Origin: a virus
IMG/VR virus record: IMGVR_UViG_3300023174_000096
Span: 41,517-105,516 of that record
Reading direction: 5' to 3' (one strand)
DNA length: 64,000 bases
In this document: positions 34,469 through 43,069 of the stretch, piece by piece
How the letters are laid out: the number at the start of each line of letters is the position of its first letter
How positions within the stretch are numbered: the first letter of the stretch is position 1
Made by a program: the position numbers and the translations under genes
The notes under the pieces: model-generated
Told to the model about the DNA's origin: nothing
The model's input: the letters and a program-made list of their open reading frames with translations, nothing else
The model's database searches: none

Positions 34469-35020
34469 ATGACTTTGACCGTGATTTGCGGACCCATGTT
34501 CGCAGAGAAGTCCACCACCCTCTACCGCTACGTCTCACGCGCCCTGCGCTCCAAAAAGCGCGTGGATGTGGTCGTGCCCACGGTGGACACCCGCAGCAAG
34601 GGACAAGTCGTCACCCACTCCGGGCTCACCCTTGAATCGCTGGGAGTGACGCCGAGAACGGTGGCCACGTCGTCGGACCTGTACCGGGCGATGCCCACGC
34701 CCGCGCCCGACCTGATGGTGATCGAAGAAGCCCAGTTCTTCGACATCGACCTCCCGCTGTGGGTCGGGAAGCTCGTCGAGCGGGGTGTTCACGTCGTCGC
34801 GGCGGGGCTCGACCTCACCAGCGAGGGCGGACCCTTCGGCCCGATGGGGCACCTGATGTGCCTCGCGGACCGGGTCGAGAAGCTCACGGCGATCTGCGCG
34901 TGCGGTGCGGAGGCGACCCGGACGATGTGCAGGGTGCGGAAGGACGGCGCGGTGCTGGTGGGCGGTGGCGGTGAGTACGTCCCGGCGTGCCTACCGTGCT
35001 GGATGAAGCGCCCGCGCTAG
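34469..35020 (+). CDS. tdk: thymidine kinase
   Basis: GPMFAEKST, EEAQFF, AGLD, KLTAICACG, VGGGGEYVPACLPC. Confidence 0.9.
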   Translation: MTLTVICGPMFAEKSTTLYRYVSRALRSKKRVDVVVPTVDTRSKGQVVTHSGLTLESLGVTPRTVATSSDLYRAMPTPAPDLMVIEEAQFFDIDLPLWVGKLVERGVHVVAAGLDLTSEGGPFGPMGHLMCLADRVEKLTAICACGAEATRTMCRVRKDGAVLVGGGGEYVPACLPCWMKRPR

Positions 35021-35023
35021 TCG

Positions 35024-35398
35024 TTAGCGGGCGAGTTTCGTCAGAGCCTCAAAGGCTTCTTGCATCGGACGGCTCTGCGAGCGACGGCAGTCCATCAGGC
35101 TGTGTTGGACCTTGTCAAGGATCTTGACCAAGAAGTCATGACCCTGCCCGGGGTTCTGTTCGGCCCCGTCGAGGACGTGGGCGAACGCAAGGCGCGCGTT
35201 TTCTTCAGCCATCCGCAGGTAGGCGATGGCGTCGTTCATGGCTTCCTTCGCCGCCCCGTAATCCGACTTGCTCGAATCGACCGACTCGAAGACCATCGGT
35301 CCCGCCGTCTTGGTGAGGAGGGGCATGAGGTGCGAACGGAGCTCCGGGTTGGTGTGAGCCAGCCGGATGATCTTGGAACGGAGTGCTTGATCGCTCAT
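35024..35398 (-). CDS. leader-bearing helical protein (copy 4)
   Basis: MSDQALRSKIIRLAHTNPELRSHLMPLLTKTAG. Confidence 0.7.
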   Translation of the reverse strand: MSDQALRSKIIRLAHTNPELRSHLMPLLTKTAGPMVFESVDSSKSDYGAAKEAMNDAIAYLRMAEENARLAFAHVLDGAEQNPGQGHDFLVKILDKVQHSLMDCRRSQSRPMQEAFEALTKLAR

Positions 35399-35439: not shown

Positions 35440-38400
35440 TCAAACGAGGCCCGACCAGCCCTTGAGGGAGGCGAGGATCTTCTTGGCGGCGGACGCCCCC
35501 TCCGTGACCTTCACGGGCTTGGTGGGGGACTCTTCGTTCGTGCGGTCGATCACCGTGAGGTAGACACTGGTGTCACCGAGGGTGCATTGGGACAGCAAGA
35601 ACTGCTGGTACTCGGGAGCCCCCTGCGCGTTGTCCTTGGGCTGGGGGTAGACGGTGAGGTACACGCTGAAGGCCATCCCGTCCACGGTGCGGTCGCCCAC
35701 CTTGCAGGGGACGAAGTGCGGGTGGACGGTGATCGACAGGGAGTTGGGGAAGCGCATCCCCGCCCGCACCTCGTCCACCGCCGCGCTGGAGATCAGTCGG
35801 AGATCCTTGGGCATGATCTTCTGCGAGAGGGCCGAGAGAACCTCCCGCGCCTGTGCCCGGAACGCCTCAAACCGCTCGTAGAGCATCTGGGCATCCCGAA
35901 GCGCCGCGCTGATGGTGGCGTCACTTGGGTGCTCGGTGAGGTAGGTGCGGCAGTGGGCGATCACCCGCTCGGCGTGTCGCATCCCATGCTCAGACTTGGC
36001 GAACACCTCCGTCTGCGAGTGCAGGGTGAGCGCCGCGATGCGCCCCACCACGGGCATGGGCACCGTCTCCGCGTAGGTGTCCAGCACCGCTTGGATGTCC
36101 GACGCCAGTGCCTCCAGCGTCTCCAGTTCGCCCGTGATCGTGGCCACGGGGTCGATGGCATCGAGGTGCTGGGACACGACACGGCGAACAGATGCACTTC
36201 TCACGGGTACCTCACAGACAGTCGGAGGGGGGTCTTGGCGACCCTTCCAGAACACGGTGACGATCTCGATGCGCCCTGCGTCGGTGGCGAACACCACTTT
36301 CAGCCGGGTCTTGGGGTCCACCCACTCAATCTTCTCTTGGGAGAGCAGGGCTTCGTACTGGTCGGGGTTCACCTTCTGGAGCCCCTGCGCGTAGACGATG
36401 AACGAGTTCAGCGCAGCCTCCACGTCCTTGACCGTCACGGATCGGTAGTCCATGCGGAACTGGGCGTGGGGGAGGATGGTGAAGCTCTTGAAGCCCGACC
36501 CGCTCTCAGTGGTCAGCGGGTAGACCTTCCGGGCGTCCGGGTTGGACAGATCACCCGTCTCGGCGTCGTCGGTGAGCTTCTCCCGCAGAGCGGGGTTGCG
36601 GATCGCGCGGTTGATCCGGTCCACCACCTTGCACGGGCCACCGTTGAGCCCCAGCGGTGGTGACAGGTCGGCGGTCTTCTTGGCCTTCTCGTCGGCGGCT
36701 TCCATCTGACCCTTCACCTTCTCGGCCCACGCTCGTCCGGGGTCACCACCCCAGATCAGCCACGACACGTTGCCCTTGTCGTTCCACGGCTCACCCTTGT
36801 TCTCCGGGGCGACGCCCTTGTTCTTCTCGTGGCGCGAGAAGAACGCGGTCATCTGCTTGATGGTGTCGGGCGAGATGTTGTCCCGGTTCTTGAGGTTCAC
36901 CGCCCGCTGCACGCCGCTCCCGATGCCCTGCTCGGCAGCTTCCGCCGGGGTGAGCCCGCCCTTGTTCGACGGGCTGGCTTTCTCACGGTACTCCAAGCCC
37001 TTTTCCGCTGCGTCGGCCACCGACTGCGGGGGCTTGAAGTCGATGTGCTCGTACTTCTTGGGCACGTCGGCGGTTCGGGTGCGGCGGTGGTTCATGGTCA
37101 CGTCTTGATGATGAAGTTCACGGCGAGCCACGGCTGCATATTGGCGTGCGCGCTGCCACCGCCCGTCGAACCCGTGGTGAACGTGTGCGTGTAGACGAGC
37201 GAACCGTTGGGCGACACGGACGGGGGATGCGCGGAGCCTCTCTCGCACGCGGTCGTTGAGTTTCACGTCTTGGTCGGCCAAGTTCGGGTCCGACAGGAGG
37301 AACTCGCGAGCAATGGGGACAAGGCTCGCGCGAGCCCTGCCCGTCAACGAGAACTCTTGAATGAGCGCCATGTTGTCCACTGCGGGTTTCCGCAGGGCTT
37401 CAAGGTACTTCCTTGCCTCGTCACTGGACCATCCGCTGGTGTTCTGCTTGAACTGCTCGCGCTCGTTCGGCGTCAAAAAGTCCAGCACCCTCCCCGCGAT
37501 CCCGATGTCGGCAAGCTCCAACAAGAGCTCGACCGTATGGTTGCCGTTCGCCAGTTGCTTGGTGAGGTATGCCGCGAACGGGGGGTTCTCTTGCACCATC
37601 TCGACGATCACGTCGAGTAGGCCAAGGGAACGCATCACTTTGAGGCCCATCGTCGCCTTGGGTGACTTGAGGATGTCCCCGACGAGGATGTTCCCGACAG
37701 CTTCCCACGGCATATTCTTGAGCTTCGCGGCGTTGCGCCTCACAGAGGCCATAGCATCGGGCGAGATGGTCAAGTCATACCGCAGCAAGAACTTCAAGAC
37801 CCGGAGCATCCGAGTCGGGTCGTCGCTGAAGGTCTTGTCGGGGTCCACGGGCGTCGAGATGAGCTTCTGCTCAAGGTGCTGACGACCCAGCCCCGTGAGG
37901 TCAATCACTTCGGCCTTGTCAGGGCCGTTGGCGAGGTCATGCATCCGCCACAGCAGGGTGTTGAACGTGAACTCTCGGCGGAACACATCCTCTTCAATGG
38001 TCGCGGGGGACACGTCCGTGGGCTTGTATCCCTTGCCTTTGCCCCCCGCACCCTCGTAGGACTCCTTGCGGGCGTTGGCGATCTCGATCACCTCGCCCTT
38101 CAGGTTGATCCCGTCGAGCAGCCACTCCCCCTTCACGGTGAGGATCACCACCCCGTACTGGTTGGTCGCGAGGTTCGTCGGGACAGGGATGGCGTCCACC
38201 ACCTTTCGGGCGAACCACTCTGAATCCCGGCCCGCCGACACGGAGTCCACCACCACGTCGATGTCCTTGATGGGCACACCGAGGATGAAGTTCCGCACGG
38301 CACCGCCGACGACGTAGACGTGTCGGGCGACGCCAGCGTCACGGGCCACCTCAGACAGAAAACTCATCAACGCGATGGACTTGGCGTGTGCCGAGGATGC

Positions 38401-39309
38401 CATCAGGTACCGGGAAGCGAGCTTCACCGGGTCCACGGACTTCCTGACCTGTCCGGTCTTGGGTGACAGTTCCACGAGCTCTTTGCCTCCGTTGCGGTAG
38501 CTAAACGCCCTCACCGTGATCTTGGGCGAGTAGTCCTTGGGCAGACGGTCCTCCAGCCCCTCGTAGTCCATCTTGCCGGGGATGACGTAGAAATCCAACT
38601 CCCGGTCGGTGAGGTTCATCACCATCTGGGAGGTGGTCGCCATCGAGTCCGTGTCTCGCACCGGGTCGTTGTGGGTGCGCGGCCCTTCGGAGCGGTTCCG
38701 CATGAGGTCCGGGCCAAGGTCCGTGGGCGTCTTGCTCTGACGGAGGATCTGGGTGGACTTCTCCTTGCGGGCGGCGGACGAGAGATACCCCTCGCCGTCC
38801 GTGTAGCCCGTCCCGCCCGTGTCGCGCCCGTGGTTGGTGCGGACATGGATCTCACTGCCCTCCAAGGGCTTGGTGACGCAGTCCCCGTTGATGAGCTCGA
38901 CCGAGAACGCCCGGTTCGGGTCACTCACGAACGAGTGCCCTTCCAGCCCCCCAAGGTGGGAGCACAGGGAGTCAATGGCGTCCTGCACGGTGCGGCACGA
39001 GAGGGCCTTGAGGATGCGGGCACCGTCGAGCGCCTTGCCCTTCTTGCCCTTCTTGTCCTCGACAGCCGTGGCGGTGCCTTCGGCCTCATCGAGGCCCACG
39101 GCGAGCGCCGCGTTGGCGATCCCGATCCCGTGCTCGTTCAACCCCTCGCACCACCCCGTGACGTTGTCGCGCATATACGCGACCTCGACGCCGTCGAGGA
39201 GCTCGCGGACGAGGGTGACTCGTGGGGTGTACTTGCGGTCACGGTTCTTGAGGAGAGCCCTCTTCCCGTCCCACACACCAGCAGCAATGACGCAAGCGAG
39301 TCTGTCCAT
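35440..39309 (-). CDS. multi-domain polyprotein: Ntn hydrolase + class II CCA/poly(A) nucleotidyltransferase + phage head-associated domain + DUF4258/BECR-like RNase + unknown domain
   Basis: C6 VIAA..KNRDR..GLNEHG..RTNHG; VGGAVRN..KDIDVV..RREFTFN..DDPTRMLR; PP..AEKGLE..FFSRH..WLIWGGD; HAQFRMDYR..IVTVFW. Confidence 0.75.
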   Translation of the reverse strand: MDRLACVIAAGVWDGKRALLKNRDRKYTPRVTLVRELLDGVEVAYMRDNVTGWCEGLNEHGIGIANAALAVGLDEAEGTATAVEDKKGKKGKALDGARILKALSCRTVQDAIDSLCSHLGGLEGHSFVSDPNRAFSVELINGDCVTKPLEGSEIHVRTNHGRDTGGTGYTDGEGYLSSAARKEKSTQILRQSKTPTDLGPDLMRNRSEGPRTHNDPVRDTDSMATTSQMVMNLTDRELDFYVIPGKMDYEGLEDRLPKDYSPKITVRAFSYRNGGKELVELSPKTGQVRKSVDPVKLASRYLMASSAHAKSIALMSFLSEVARDAGVARHVYVVGGAVRNFILGVPIKDIDVVVDSVSAGRDSEWFARKVVDAIPVPTNLATNQYGVVILTVKGEWLLDGINLKGEVIEIANARKESYEGAGGKGKGYKPTDVSPATIEEDVFRREFTFNTLLWRMHDLANGPDKAEVIDLTGLGRQHLEQKLISTPVDPDKTFSDDPTRMLRVLKFLLRYDLTISPDAMASVRRNAAKLKNMPWEAVGNILVGDILKSPKATMGLKVMRSLGLLDVIVEMVQENPPFAAYLTKQLANGNHTVELLLELADIGIAGRVLDFLTPNEREQFKQNTSGWSSDEARKYLEALRKPAVDNMALIQEFSLTGRARASLVPIAREFLLSDPNLADQDVKLNDRVRERLRASPVRVAQRFARLHAHVHHGFDGRWQRARQYAAVARRELHHQDVTMNHRRTRTADVPKKYEHIDFKPPQSVADAAEKGLEYREKASPSNKGGLTPAEAAEQGIGSGVQRAVNLKNRDNISPDTIKQMTAFFSRHEKNKGVAPENKGEPWNDKGNVSWLIWGGDPGRAWAEKVKGQMEAADEKAKKTADLSPPLGLNGGPCKVVDRINRAIRNPALREKLTDDAETGDLSNPDARKVYPLTTESGSGFKSFTILPHAQFRMDYRSVTVKDVEAALNSFIVYAQGLQKVNPDQYEALLSQEKIEWVDPKTRLKVVFATDAGRIEIVTVFWKGRQDPPPTVCEVPVRSASVRRVVSQHLDAIDPVATITGELETLEALASDIQAVLDTYAETVPMPVVGRIAALTLHSQTEVFAKSEHGMRHAERVIAHCRTYLTEHPSDATISAALRDAQMLYERFEAFRAQAREVLSALSQKIMPKDLRLISSAAVDEVRAGMRFPNSLSITVHPHFVPCKVGDRTVDGMAFSVYLTVYPQPKDNAQGAPEYQQFLLSQCTLGDTSVYLTVIDRTNEESPTKPVKVTEGASAAKKILASLKGWSGLV

Positions 39310-41362: not shown

Positions 41363-43042
41363 CTACTCCTCGTCCTTGAACGTGGGGGTGAACACGGGCT
41401 TCTTGCCCTTCGGTGCCTTCTCCTGCACCCTCATCTTCTCTCGGGCCTTCTCGGCGCGCTCGCCCTTAGCCATGTCGTGGGCCTTGGGTCGGGCCATGCA
41501 CTTGAAGGGGGTCTTCCCGCCCCGGGTGAGGTCTTTCCAGTTCGGGTCGTCCGTGAGGTCGCCGCACGGCCCGATGATGTCACCGGGCTCGTAGGTCTTC
41601 TTGGTCCCGTCCTCGCGGGTGATCGTGCGCTTCACGGGCGAGATCGCCACCCAATCTCCCCACTGGGCCTCACCGGGTGATTTGCCCTTGCCCTGACCGT
41701 GGCCGCTGAACCACTCGTCTAGGCCCCCGTGACCTACGTCTTTTTTGGCCTTTCCCTTGGCGGACAGGTAGCGGGACGCAACACGGGCGGCGCTTGCGAA
41801 GCGCCCACGGTCCTTCTTGGCGAGGAACGCCTTGAACCGCTCGATCTGATCGCGGGTCATGTCCCGGCCCAGAACGAAGTGCGCGAACACCTCCGCGAAA
41901 TCCTCCTCCGTGGCGGTCCCCCCGTACTCCGACACGGCGGCGACTTCTTTGTAGAAGCTGTCGAACCGAGCGCGGTCGCCCGCGTCCATGAACTTGAAGT
42001 AGTAGCGGTGCCCTAGCTCATGGATGAGGAGCTCGACCAAGAAGGGCTTGGGCAACAAGAACACCACGACGTGGTCGGGGCCGATGACGTAGTGCGCCCC
42101 CACTCCGAAGTGCTTGCCCAGCGGGTTCTCACCACCGCACTTCGGGCACCCGACGAAGATCGGGCCATACCAGAGGTCGCCAAAGCCCTTCTGGTCGAGC
42201 AGCGCCTTGGCCTTCTGGAAGTAGGGGATGTAGTCAGACAGACCCCGGGGGTCACCGGGGTCGGGGCGGGTGATGAGGTTACGGTCGGGCTCGCCGTCGT
42301 ACACCAGCTTGACCTTCCCGATGTCGAACTCCAGCAGGATCTCGTCGGGATCGTAGGACGAGCCCCCCGAGTATTTGCTGAGAAATGTGGTGATCGCCCG
42401 CAGGAGTTTGCCCGAAAGGATGTCCTCGACCTTGGCGAGTGCCTCCCGGGCGTAGTCCTCGTACCCCTTCAGCGCAGCGGCGAACGGGTCGTCAGGGTTC
42501 ACCCGCTGGTAGAAGCCCAGTATATTCTGCCCGTCCATCGTGTAGGTGTGCGTGCCGGGGGTCATTGCATCCCGGACGTGCTGGAACTTCCCGAGGTCTT
42601 CGTCGAGAAGGTACCTCGCTTCCTTGAGCTCATCACGGACTTTGAGTCGAATCGCCTCAAAGACGCTGGACGGGTCCATTCCACGGGGCAGCAAGCCCTT
42701 CGTGTAGGCCATGTGCTCCCACAGGCGCTCTAGCTCCCGGTCCCGCAGGGACTTGAAGTGCGCGATGAGGTCGTCGAGTGAGGCGTACCGTGGCTTGGGC
42801 GCAAAGGTCTTCTTGACCCACGCACGGATACCCTTGACCCATGCCGGGTCGATCTTGGTCTCCTCCCCGGCGGACTTCTTCGCCCGCCAACCGCCGCCCT
42901 CGTCCTTGTAGAGCTTGAGGGCGTGCCCGACCGCGTAGGCACTGGGCCACTTGGTGTAGCGTTCCTTCGCCTTCGCCTTGCACTTCTCCCAGAGCTCGGG
43001 ATTCGTGGGATCGTTGTCGTCGGCGGCAGTGAAGCGGTCCAT
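41363..43042 (-). CDS. polyprotein-like: PSAYA domain + zincin (HExxH) metallopeptidase + GLDEWF domain
   Basis: WPSAYAVGHALKLYKDEGGGW; LIHELGHRYY..VSEYG..EDFAEVF; GGLDEWF..WVAI..PCG..PFKC. Confidence 0.7.
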   Translation of the reverse strand: MDRFTAADDNDPTNPELWEKCKAKAKERYTKWPSAYAVGHALKLYKDEGGGWRAKKSAGEETKIDPAWVKGIRAWVKKTFAPKPRYASLDDLIAHFKSLRDRELERLWEHMAYTKGLLPRGMDPSSVFEAIRLKVRDELKEARYLLDEDLGKFQHVRDAMTPGTHTYTMDGQNILGFYQRVNPDDPFAAALKGYEDYAREALAKVEDILSGKLLRAITTFLSKYSGGSSYDPDEILLEFDIGKVKLVYDGEPDRNLITRPDPGDPRGLSDYIPYFQKAKALLDQKGFGDLWYGPIFVGCPKCGGENPLGKHFGVGAHYVIGPDHVVVFLLPKPFLVELLIHELGHRYYFKFMDAGDRARFDSFYKEVAAVSEYGGTATEEDFAEVFAHFVLGRDMTRDQIERFKAFLAKKDRGRFASAARVASRYLSAKGKAKKDVGHGGLDEWFSGHGQGKGKSPGEAQWGDWVAISPVKRTITREDGTKKTYEPGDIIGPCGDLTDDPNWKDLTRGGKTPFKCMARPKAHDMAKGERAEKAREKMRVQEKAPKGKKPVFTPTFKDEE

Positions 43043-43069
43043 CACCGCGCGCGGGCGATAGAACGGTTA

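Follow-up and report, generated by a model that had tools for sequence, protein, structure and literature searches.

How a phage enzyme that is predicted to need its catalytic cysteine at the very start of the chain could lose the five residues in front of it is the question raised by a 64,000-nucleotide stretch of DNA (the window, positions 41,517 to 105,516 of IMG/VR virus record IMGVR_UViG_3300023174_000096). The record is a 105.5-kb phage record, referred to as G000, with an estimated completeness of 24% and a GC content of 65%. Its longest minus-strand open reading frame (ORF), 35440-39309, encodes a polyprotein of 1289 residues with the N-terminus MDRLACVIAAGVWDGKRALLKNRDR...WCEGLNEHG...HVRTNHG, that is MDRLA|CVIAAG, where the vertical bar here and below marks a predicted cleavage position. 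The initial annotation regarded this start and the downstream motifs as those of an N-terminal nucleophile (Ntn) hydrolase whose cysteine is exposed at a [KR]-x-A site. The translation of the ORF confirmed the start and the motifs, and no upstream in-frame start was found for this ORF. We propose that the head-maturation protease of the phage cuts the pro-segment off in trans and thereby unmasks Cys6. The probability of this reading is put at about 0.6.

The N-terminal domain was modelled with AlphaFold2 from an alignment of 54 homologues. The model has a pLDDT of 87 and a pTM of 0.88, and its first strand starts at residue 7. The best PDB matches in Foldseek were the precursor (2x1c) and the mature form (2x1d) of isopenicillin-N acyltransferase (AAT), followed by CV2077, bile-salt hydrolases (BSH), penicillin V acylases (PVA), TANGO2 and PLBD. 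There were 68 matches at E<=1e-3, and among the matches listed all were Ntn-fold hydrolases or their homologues. Superposition with VIA-align gave Z scores of 20.2 for 3gvz, 18.6 for NAAA, 18.5 for acid ceramidase and AAT, and 16-17.6 for BSH, PVA and C69 dipeptidase, with 203-225 residues covered in the alignments to 3gvz and AAT. The fold suggested in the initial annotation is thus borne out. Residue 6 of the model pairs with C103 of AAT, C2 of BSH, C1 of PVA, C143 of acid ceramidase, residue 249 of PLBD and Cys9 of C69 dipeptidase. The alignments to mature chains begin at model residue 6, opposite the known nucleophiles, and Cys6 therefore occupies the position of the N-terminal nucleophile. 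In agreement with the earlier suggestion, it is the predicted nucleophile of the hydrolase. Because the nucleophile of this superfamily needs the start of the chain, the pro-segment MDRLA would have to be removed for activity, as had also been claimed.

The residues C6, K21, R23, D24, R25, T158, N159, H160 and G161 are invariant across the 54-homologue alignment. The spacing of R23, D24 and N159 after the Cys is comparable to that of the Ntn helper residues (Arg/Asp approximately 16-19 residues after the Cys), as read from the alignment. The helper residues of BSH and PVA are Arg17/18 and Asp20/21, and by analogy with these enzymes R23/D24 and N159 are candidate catalytic helpers. The profile PF03417 (AAT) scores 22.4 bits with the domain alone (E 1e-4), narrowly below its cut-off of 23.2, and is matched at E<=0.01 by 30 of the 54 relatives. 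NF040521 (C45 proenzyme) scores 39.4 bits (E 4e-10), clearly below its cut-off of 85. Searches of the sequences of solved chains with the single domain and with the family profile gave no useful match, and the fold was placed by structure comparison only. The family was found only in phages. It is a divergent, phage-only sister of C45, which lies outside C45 by the curators' thresholds. The substrate of the hydrolase is probably a small-molecule or peptide amide.

The residues preceding the Cys were read in 243 non-identical phage domains, which remained after the removal of duplicates from the hundreds of relatives that database searches yielded. The pro-site [KR]-x-[ASG]|C (A-type) is present in 119 of these domains; among the 114 scored, P3 is Lys in 60 and Arg in 54, and P1 is Ala in 106, Ser in 6 and Gly in 2. 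The pro-site [LIVM]-x-E|C (E-type) is present in 91 domains; among the 67 scored, P3 is Ile in 33, Leu in 31 and Val in 3, while P1 is Glu in all. A further 32 domains start M|C and have no propeptide (MC-type), and a single one has R-L-V|C. Both motif classes have a fixed P3 and P1 but a free P2. The composition-based expectation is 3.0% for [KR]-x-[ASG] and 1.4% for [LIVM]-x-E. In a single protein such as that of the window, an R-x-A preceding the Cys would occur by chance in approximately 3% of cases. The R-L-A of the window protein is significant because [KR]-x-[ASG] is kept directly before the invariant Cys in 119 of the 120 sequences of its clade. The motif still abuts the Cys when the domain is internal and lies behind kinase, PAP2, zincin or other modules (19 unique cases per class).

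The length of the pro-segment is five residues in the window protein and varies from 0 to approximately 25 residues in the stand-alone relatives, and in polyproteins a whole upstream domain takes its place. The shortest pro-segments have the form M-x-[KR]-x-A or M-(x)-[LI]-x-E. Longer A-type pro-segments carry an amphipathic helix (..SRVASxYL..) ahead of the site, and many A-type proteins have the helix and [KR]-x-A right before the Cys. A lipoprotein lipobox (L-[AS]-[GA]|C) was considered as another explanation of [ASG]|C and rejected, since the pro-segments, of 1-25 residues, are basic or amphipathic and lack a signal peptide. Lipoprotein signal peptidase is excluded because there is no hydrophobic signal segment, P3 is Lys or Arg, and P1 is Glu in the E class.

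The reader of an [LIVM]-x-E site is suggested by phage T4. The T4 protease gp21 recognises [LI]-x-E, and processing is decided at P3 and P1 (PMC9026906, PMC5694885). Head processing in giant phages uses S/A-x-E (PMC10052503, PMC5694885). Across the A- and E-type genomes, the motif class tracks the protease type of the phage. Peptidase_S77 is present in all six near-complete E- or MC-type genomes searched, namely five that are 94-100% complete by CheckV and the complete MA9V-2. A local-profile search detected it approximately 10 kb downstream of the Ntn polyprotein in 8 further E-type loci. It is absent from the four large A-type genomes G010-G013, two of which are rated 100% complete, as well as from 0.93 Mb of A-type loci and from G000. 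In these searches the long contigs (164-437 kb) were covered by their 10-kb flanks around the Ntn loci. The marine E-type loci L184, L204, L212, L215, L217, L225, L229 and L236 show conserved synteny, with an Ntn polyprotein of approximately 1000-1500 residues and the S77 gene approximately 10 kb downstream.

The E-type motif is not confined to the Ntn protein. In the complete E-type genome G002 (266 kb), the gene for the S77 protease is followed by genes for proteins of 228, 127 and 177 residues, the Ntn hydrolase, proteins of 158 and 384 residues, and the major head protein. The protease starts MQPKLLIE|, the Ntn hydrolase MAKLLNE|C, the 384-residue protein MASSKLLKE|A and the major head protein MANFDLSKLME|G. 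The 127- and 177-residue proteins, encoded between the S77 and Ntn genes, are paralogues with the N-terminus MK[KT]QNSYLIME|GSANPKNL (L080:2049-2968 = G002:250488-251407), and judging from their sequences they resemble the T4 internal proteins with a capsid-targeting sequence. Genome-wide, [LIV]-x-E ends at residues 4-12 in 67 proteins of G002 versus 39.7 expected (p = 2e-5). The only cultured phages with a relative are the Chryseobacterium phages MA9V-1 and MA9V-2, and the product of the Ntn gene of the latter, MA9V2_239, has the N-terminus MTSADNNAFINE|C. The S77 match of MA9V-2 (L082, OR513085.1:167084-167422) sits within an open frame of 1213 residues, so that this protease is possibly part of a fusion with another head protein. 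A literature search found no paper in which an Ntn or C45 hydrolase is described as a head protein of a phage.

In the clade of the window protein, [KR]-x-A sites are found at the ends of leaders on many otherwise unrelated proteins. Four genes of the window share one leader, which ends K-T-A|G, K-E-A|A, K-V-A|A or K-T-A|G. The leader pattern gave 13 matches, all in loci with a [KR]-x-A-class Ntn domain, and none in E/MC loci totalling 1.1 Mb. Of the 309 predicted proteins of the complete A-type genome G012 (312 kb, GC 38%), 31 carry a leader such as MNKVS|AQQIRSLEMRIA|RLEKEA|G. These leaders have the form M.K.[AS]|..IRSLEMRIA|RLEKEA|G, with two or three [KR]-x-[AS] sites per leader. The core pattern has only 3 matches past residue 60 in G012 and is found in 1 of the 316 proteins of the E-type G002. 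The Ntn protein of G012, a fusion with ChaC/GGACT, has the N-terminus MDKNA|C. N-terminal [KR]-x-A sites number 32 in G012 versus 20.3 expected (p = 0.011), and when G012 is compared with G002 the odds ratio is 2.1 (p = 0.03). On the broader proposal given below, the presence of the [KR]-x-A leader on approximately 10% of the G012 proteins would point to a very large encapsidated cargo, including cut-apart multi-enzyme polyproteins. The leader-bearing proteins of G012 include a tandem run of five paralogues (e.g. G012:151847-157091; the genome corresponds to loci L262-L277).

Within the window polyprotein, [KR]-x-A sites lie at module borders, at residues 5, 298, 325, 700, 704, 747 and 1039. 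In the relatives P0004-P0008 and P0011 a linker helix of the V-K-L-A-S-R-Y-L kind ends or follows the Ntn domain. Relatives stop or recombine exactly at such helices: P0005 and P0006 terminate after ..RVAQRF.., and P0004 and P0007 join the Ntn domain directly to the third module. Over the whole 1289-residue polyprotein there is no excess of [KR]-x-A (14 sites versus 16.8 expected). Directly before the Cys, the [KR]-x-A site of the initial annotation is conserved across the clade. No excess of N-terminal motifs was found across the 105-kb record either (9 versus 9.2), in which start calls are unreliable at 65% GC. The start of a neighbouring polyprotein, MDRFTA|A, had been regarded as a similar case. 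This did not hold, since in (V)MDRFTA|A, the start of that ORF, Arg occupies P4 and not P3.

We propose the following route. The N-terminal 290 residues would be made as the inactive precursor of a phage-specific, C45/AAT-like cysteine Ntn hydrolase. A cut between Ala5 and Cys6 would free the alpha-amino group of the nucleophile. The likeliest agent of this cut would be the head-maturation protease of the phage, acting within the procapsid; here we infer encapsidation, cleavage in trans and the identity of the protease. In the clade of the window protein this protease would read [KR]-x-A/S/G, with a basic P3 and a small P1. It would also trim the K-x-A|G/A-terminated leaders of other cargo and cut the linker sites of the polyprotein. 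Separate active proteins would result, among them the hydrolase and the CCA-adding enzyme, and these would be ejected into the host with the DNA. Even odds are what we would give to the broader proposal, namely that a phage-only family of Ntn zymogens is armed by the capsid protease, that a clade of huge phages (GC 38-65%) uses an undescribed [KR]-x-[A/S/G] maturation specificity, and that a large cargo is encapsidated.

Cleavage in trans is favoured by the parallel with T4-like phages, the E-type motif being the motif of the T4 protease. The alternative that deserves most weight is autoprocessing, in which the precursor sheds its pro-segment by an N-to-S acyl shift at Cys6 and the motifs reflect a lineage-specific geometry of self-cleavage or another role of the pro-segment. 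As a rule the closest solved relatives process themselves, the top Foldseek matches are the AAT structures before and after maturation (2x1c/2x1d), and the nearest NCBIfam model is named 'C45 family autoproteolytic acyltransferase/hydrolase'. All candidate catalytic residues for self-cleavage are present, and, as a single deep branch separates the motif classes, these are possibly inherited clade traits. Autoprocessing, however, gives no reason for a fixed P3 with a free P2. It also leaves unexplained that the E-class motif is the T4 protease motif and recurs on neighbouring head proteins of the same cluster, and that an unrelated shared leader ends in the A-class motif. Another point against it is that P1 of the known autoprocessing sites in this superfamily is usually Gly or variable. 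Moreover, only two positions in the domain distinguish the classes, G52/D52 and L100/R100, although the pro-sites differ in P1 (Ala or Glu) and in P3 (basic or aliphatic), and at both positions the propeptide-less MC proteins have the E-class state. The Ntn domain shows no pocket changes matching the basic/Ala versus aliphatic/Glu switch, and a reader of the pro-site outside the domain is therefore favoured. Autoprocessing is thus considered possible but rather unlikely.

The initial annotation had named the trans maturation protease, autoprocessing and the Ntn domain as the processing protease. The last of these, in which the domain would cut itself first and then the [KR]-x-A leaders and linkers, appears very improbable. 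The domain is a Cys hydrolase, it stands first in the polyprotein and has the motif at its own N-terminus, and no other protease was matched by the head-protease profiles (S77, S78, S49, S21, ClpP) in the 105-kb record. The same domain with identical invariant residues is nevertheless a stand-alone protein of approximately 265 residues in T4-like phages that have S77 and no polyproteins. In these phages the pro-site is [LIV]-x-E or absent, which would demand a flip of specificity in an almost unchanged domain with a constant active site. The nearest folds are, in addition, those of amidases and acyltransferases with small-molecule or dipeptide substrates, and not those of endopeptidases. Similarly little weight is given to another protease acting in trans, for example the HELGH zincin of ORF 41363-43045 or a protease of the host, which would cut in the cytoplasm or following ejection instead of in the procapsid. 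The zincin-like module lies two genes from the Ntn polyprotein, and in the relative P0019 the zincin C-terminus is fused right before the Ntn domain. For polyvalent phage proteins, the processing domains that have been proposed most often are zincin peptidases (PMC5512222). The homologues of the zincin ORF in G010, G012 and G013, however, align with it over residues 1-58 and 416-559 only, and G011 has none, yet [KR]-x-A|C is kept in all four genomes. The zincin was rejected as the general protease of the clade; it is an insertion peculiar to the window phage and therefore cannot be the processing enzyme of the clade. The ORF (41363-43045, minus strand) encodes a DUF5872-like protein split by an inserted module of approximately 350 residues with the HELGH zincin, and in G010 the flanks form one uninterrupted ORF of 224 residues. 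The borders of the insertion carry K-S-A|G and R-F-A|S / R-V-A|S sites.

Several points weigh against the head-maturation protease as the agent. Ntn hydrolases of this superfamily normally autoprocess. The profiles S77, S78, S78_2, S49, S21, ClpP and phrog_94 gave no match in G000 (24% complete), G006-G009, G010 (59%) and G011 (79%). The pro-segment of five residues is too short for a targeting signal, and the scissile bond, which in the model opens a core beta-strand, may be poorly accessible to a protease acting in trans once the domain has folded. The MC-type relatives show that the enzyme can do without a propeptide and without a head protease. The association of motif and protease also has a narrow phylogenetic basis. 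A maximum-likelihood tree of 63 sequences places all sampled A-type sequences on one side of one branch with 88% support, while a FastTree of 212 sequences requires 6 class changes. Many independent switches of the motif class are not supported, the split between A- and E-type being in essence one deep branch, and the association therefore amounts to one evolutionary contrast. A candidate for the A-type head protease is a ClpP-fold protein in G013 (L255:8902-9555) and G012 (L254:9120-9851), whose best scores are to PHROG 'head maturation protease' families, with an E value of 1e-40 to phrog_94. Its gene is located 4 kb from the portal gene in G013 and among DNA polymerase, helicase and DnaB genes in G012. 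The same ClpP-like family is also present in the E-type genomes G001 and G003, and the protein is therefore only a candidate. T4-type and HK97-type capsid models gave no match in the window-clade records searched for a head module.

Like AAT (C45; 2X1C, 2X1D), the window domain has the four-layer Ntn fold with a Cys nucleophile first in the active chain. It differs from AAT in its approximately 14% identity, its sub-cut-off profile scores and the fixed P3/P1 motif, which belongs to the window family. AAT cleaves itself at Gly102|Cys103, and both chains are retained. BSH and PVA (C59) and the C69 dipeptidases have the same fold, and their Cys2, Cys1 and Cys9, respectively, pair with Cys6. The MC-type phage relatives mimic BSH, in that removal of the Met alone exposes the Cys. 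There is no match to any solved chain at the sequence level, and the substrates are presumed to be different. Modules fused to the phage proteins include nucleotidyltransferase, ChaC/GGACT, PAP2, topoisomerase IB and others.

Among virion proteins, T4 IPI-III and Alt have a short N-terminal pro-segment, the capsid-targeting sequence, with a gp21 cut set by P3 and P1 (PMC9026906), and the E-type relatives bear exactly that motif. As proposed for the window protein, the cut sets the cargo free for injection. The window protein differs in having Arg/Ala instead of Leu/Glu, in belonging to a clade without S77 and in that its encapsidation is a prediction. In T4 an Asp at P1 prevents processing, and cleavage is not known to create a catalytic residue, whereas in the window protein a free nucleophile amine would result. 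In phiKZ and SPN3US (gp175/gp245 protease, S/A-x-E) dozens of head and ejection proteins are known, with multi-copy three-residue motifs in the propeptides that resemble the multi-site leaders of G012 (PMC10052503, PMC5694885). There P1 is Glu and P3 small, whereas in the window clade P1 is small and P3 basic, and a homologous protease was not detected. The polyvalent proteins described by Iyer, Burroughs, Anand, de Souza and Aravind (2017) consist, like the window protein, of unrelated enzyme modules strung together, and relatives of the window protein carry ART-PolyVal and InPase modules. The prediction for polyvalent proteins is that they accompany the DNA and are processed by proteases, and their survey lists four peptidase superfamilies (zincin MPTase, assemblin-like, DD and LonC) and no Ntn or C45 domain (PMC5512222). 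The peptidase is embedded in the polyvalent proteins, whereas the cutting of the window protein is assigned to the head protease. Herpesvirus assemblin is a capsid protease with a P1 Ala and a fixed P3 at its maturation site, (V/L)-x-A|S. Its P3 is aliphatic, in contrast to the basic P3 of the window clade, and Peptidase_S21 had no match in any A-type genome searched.

The features of the polyprotein gene and its surroundings are collected in Table 1. In the 1289-residue protein, a weak AAT/C45 match covers residues 18-196 and the head domain of PolyA_pol (CCA-adding type) residues 331-484. The tRNA-nucleotidyltransferase PHROG spans residues 330-686, phrog_2859 residues 745-878 and a weak DUF4258 match residues 947-1021. 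Blocks of baseplate genes (27.7-32.2 kb) and of replication genes (46-62 kb) flank the gene. At 34469-35020 on the plus strand, a gene for thymidine kinase (PF00265, E 6e-33) is located between the baseplate block and the leader-bearing gene, which is on the opposite strand.

Table 1. Features of the polyprotein locus in window coordinates (columns: feature; position; strand; basis or remark)
Whole ORF, 1289 residues	35440..39309	-	order: Ntn hydrolase, CCA-adding/poly(A)-polymerase-type nucleotidyltransferase, phrog_2859 domain, DUF4258-like region, C-terminal domain
Region of the initial annotation	38430..39309	-	residues 1-293 of the ORF
ATG start codon	39307..39309	-	
Pro-segment M-D-R-L-A, P3 = Arg3, P1 = Ala5, predicted scissile bond Ala5|Cys6	39295..39309	-	[KR]-x-[ASG]|C in 119 unique relatives
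Ala5 codon	39295..39297	-	
Cys6, predicted N-terminal nucleophile	39292..39294	-	invariant in the alignment; superposes on the nucleophiles of solved relatives
Ntn-hydrolase domain (C45/AAT-like), residues 6 to ~290	38440..39294	-	AlphaFold2, Foldseek, VIA-align, sub-cut-off PF03417/NF040521
K21-N22-R23-D24-R25 motif	39235..39249	-	K21, R23, D24 and R25 invariant; candidate Arg/Asp helpers of the nucleophile
R157-T158-N159-H160-G161 motif	38827..38841	-	T158-G161 invariant; N159 is the candidate oxyanion-hole Asn
Linker helix V-K-L-A-S-R-Y-L directly C-terminal of the Ntn domain	38404..38427	-	K-L-A|S site within the helix, residue 298
A-R-D-A|G site, residue 325, just N-terminal of the nucleotidyltransferase domain	38332..38346	-	sequence and domain match
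Next downstream gene, small protein	35024..35398	-	shared leader MSDQALRSKIIRLAHTNPELRSHLMPLLTKTA|G, ending K-T-A|G

The window polyprotein joins several unrelated catalytic modules in one polypeptide, and its relatives swap modules at the linkers. Partner modules in the family are nucleotidyltransferases, ChaC/GGACT, PAP2, LigT, RNA ligase, Ham1, ART-PolyVal, InPase, topoisomerase IB and a P-loop kinase. The E-type polyprotein L222 has the Ntn domain followed by PolyA_pol, as in the window; the site at its Cys is V-D-E|C and that in its linker V-A-E|S. In P0019 (690 residues), the C-terminal segment ..RDQIERFKAFLAKKDR.. of the zincin from the neighbouring ORF of the window is fused directly before the Ntn domain (..TRLARTKNA|C), a fusion that shows module shuffling at linker motifs. 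A protein of 2130 residues (L171:9959-16348, on a 288-kb contig) consists of the Ntn hydrolase with the pro-site G-R-T-A|C, a eukaryotic-type topoisomerase IB and the InPase pyrophosphatase. Two-module proteins of Ntn and ChaC/GGACT domains recur in L234:10001-11419, L208 and L238 (complete phages of 312-376 kb). ChaC frees Cys-Gly from glutathione, and it is a speculative possibility that an Ntn dipeptidase could complete the breakdown of glutathione begun by ChaC.

If the proposed route is correct, the enzyme would be the first Ntn hydrolase to be activated in trans by a viral maturation protease instead of by itself. The exact scissile bond would be fixed for the proposed [KR]-x-A rule in uncultivated huge phages, because an Ntn enzyme is of use only when the bond cut is the one directly N-terminal of the Cys. 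The ends of leaders and the junctions of polyproteins would then be predictable genome-wide, and the pro-site would read out the specificity of the maturation protease. The enzyme family and its fused modules, such as the CCA-adding enzyme, ChaC/GGACT, PAP2, topoisomerase IB and nucleotidyltransferases, would be probable injected cargo for the first moments of infection.

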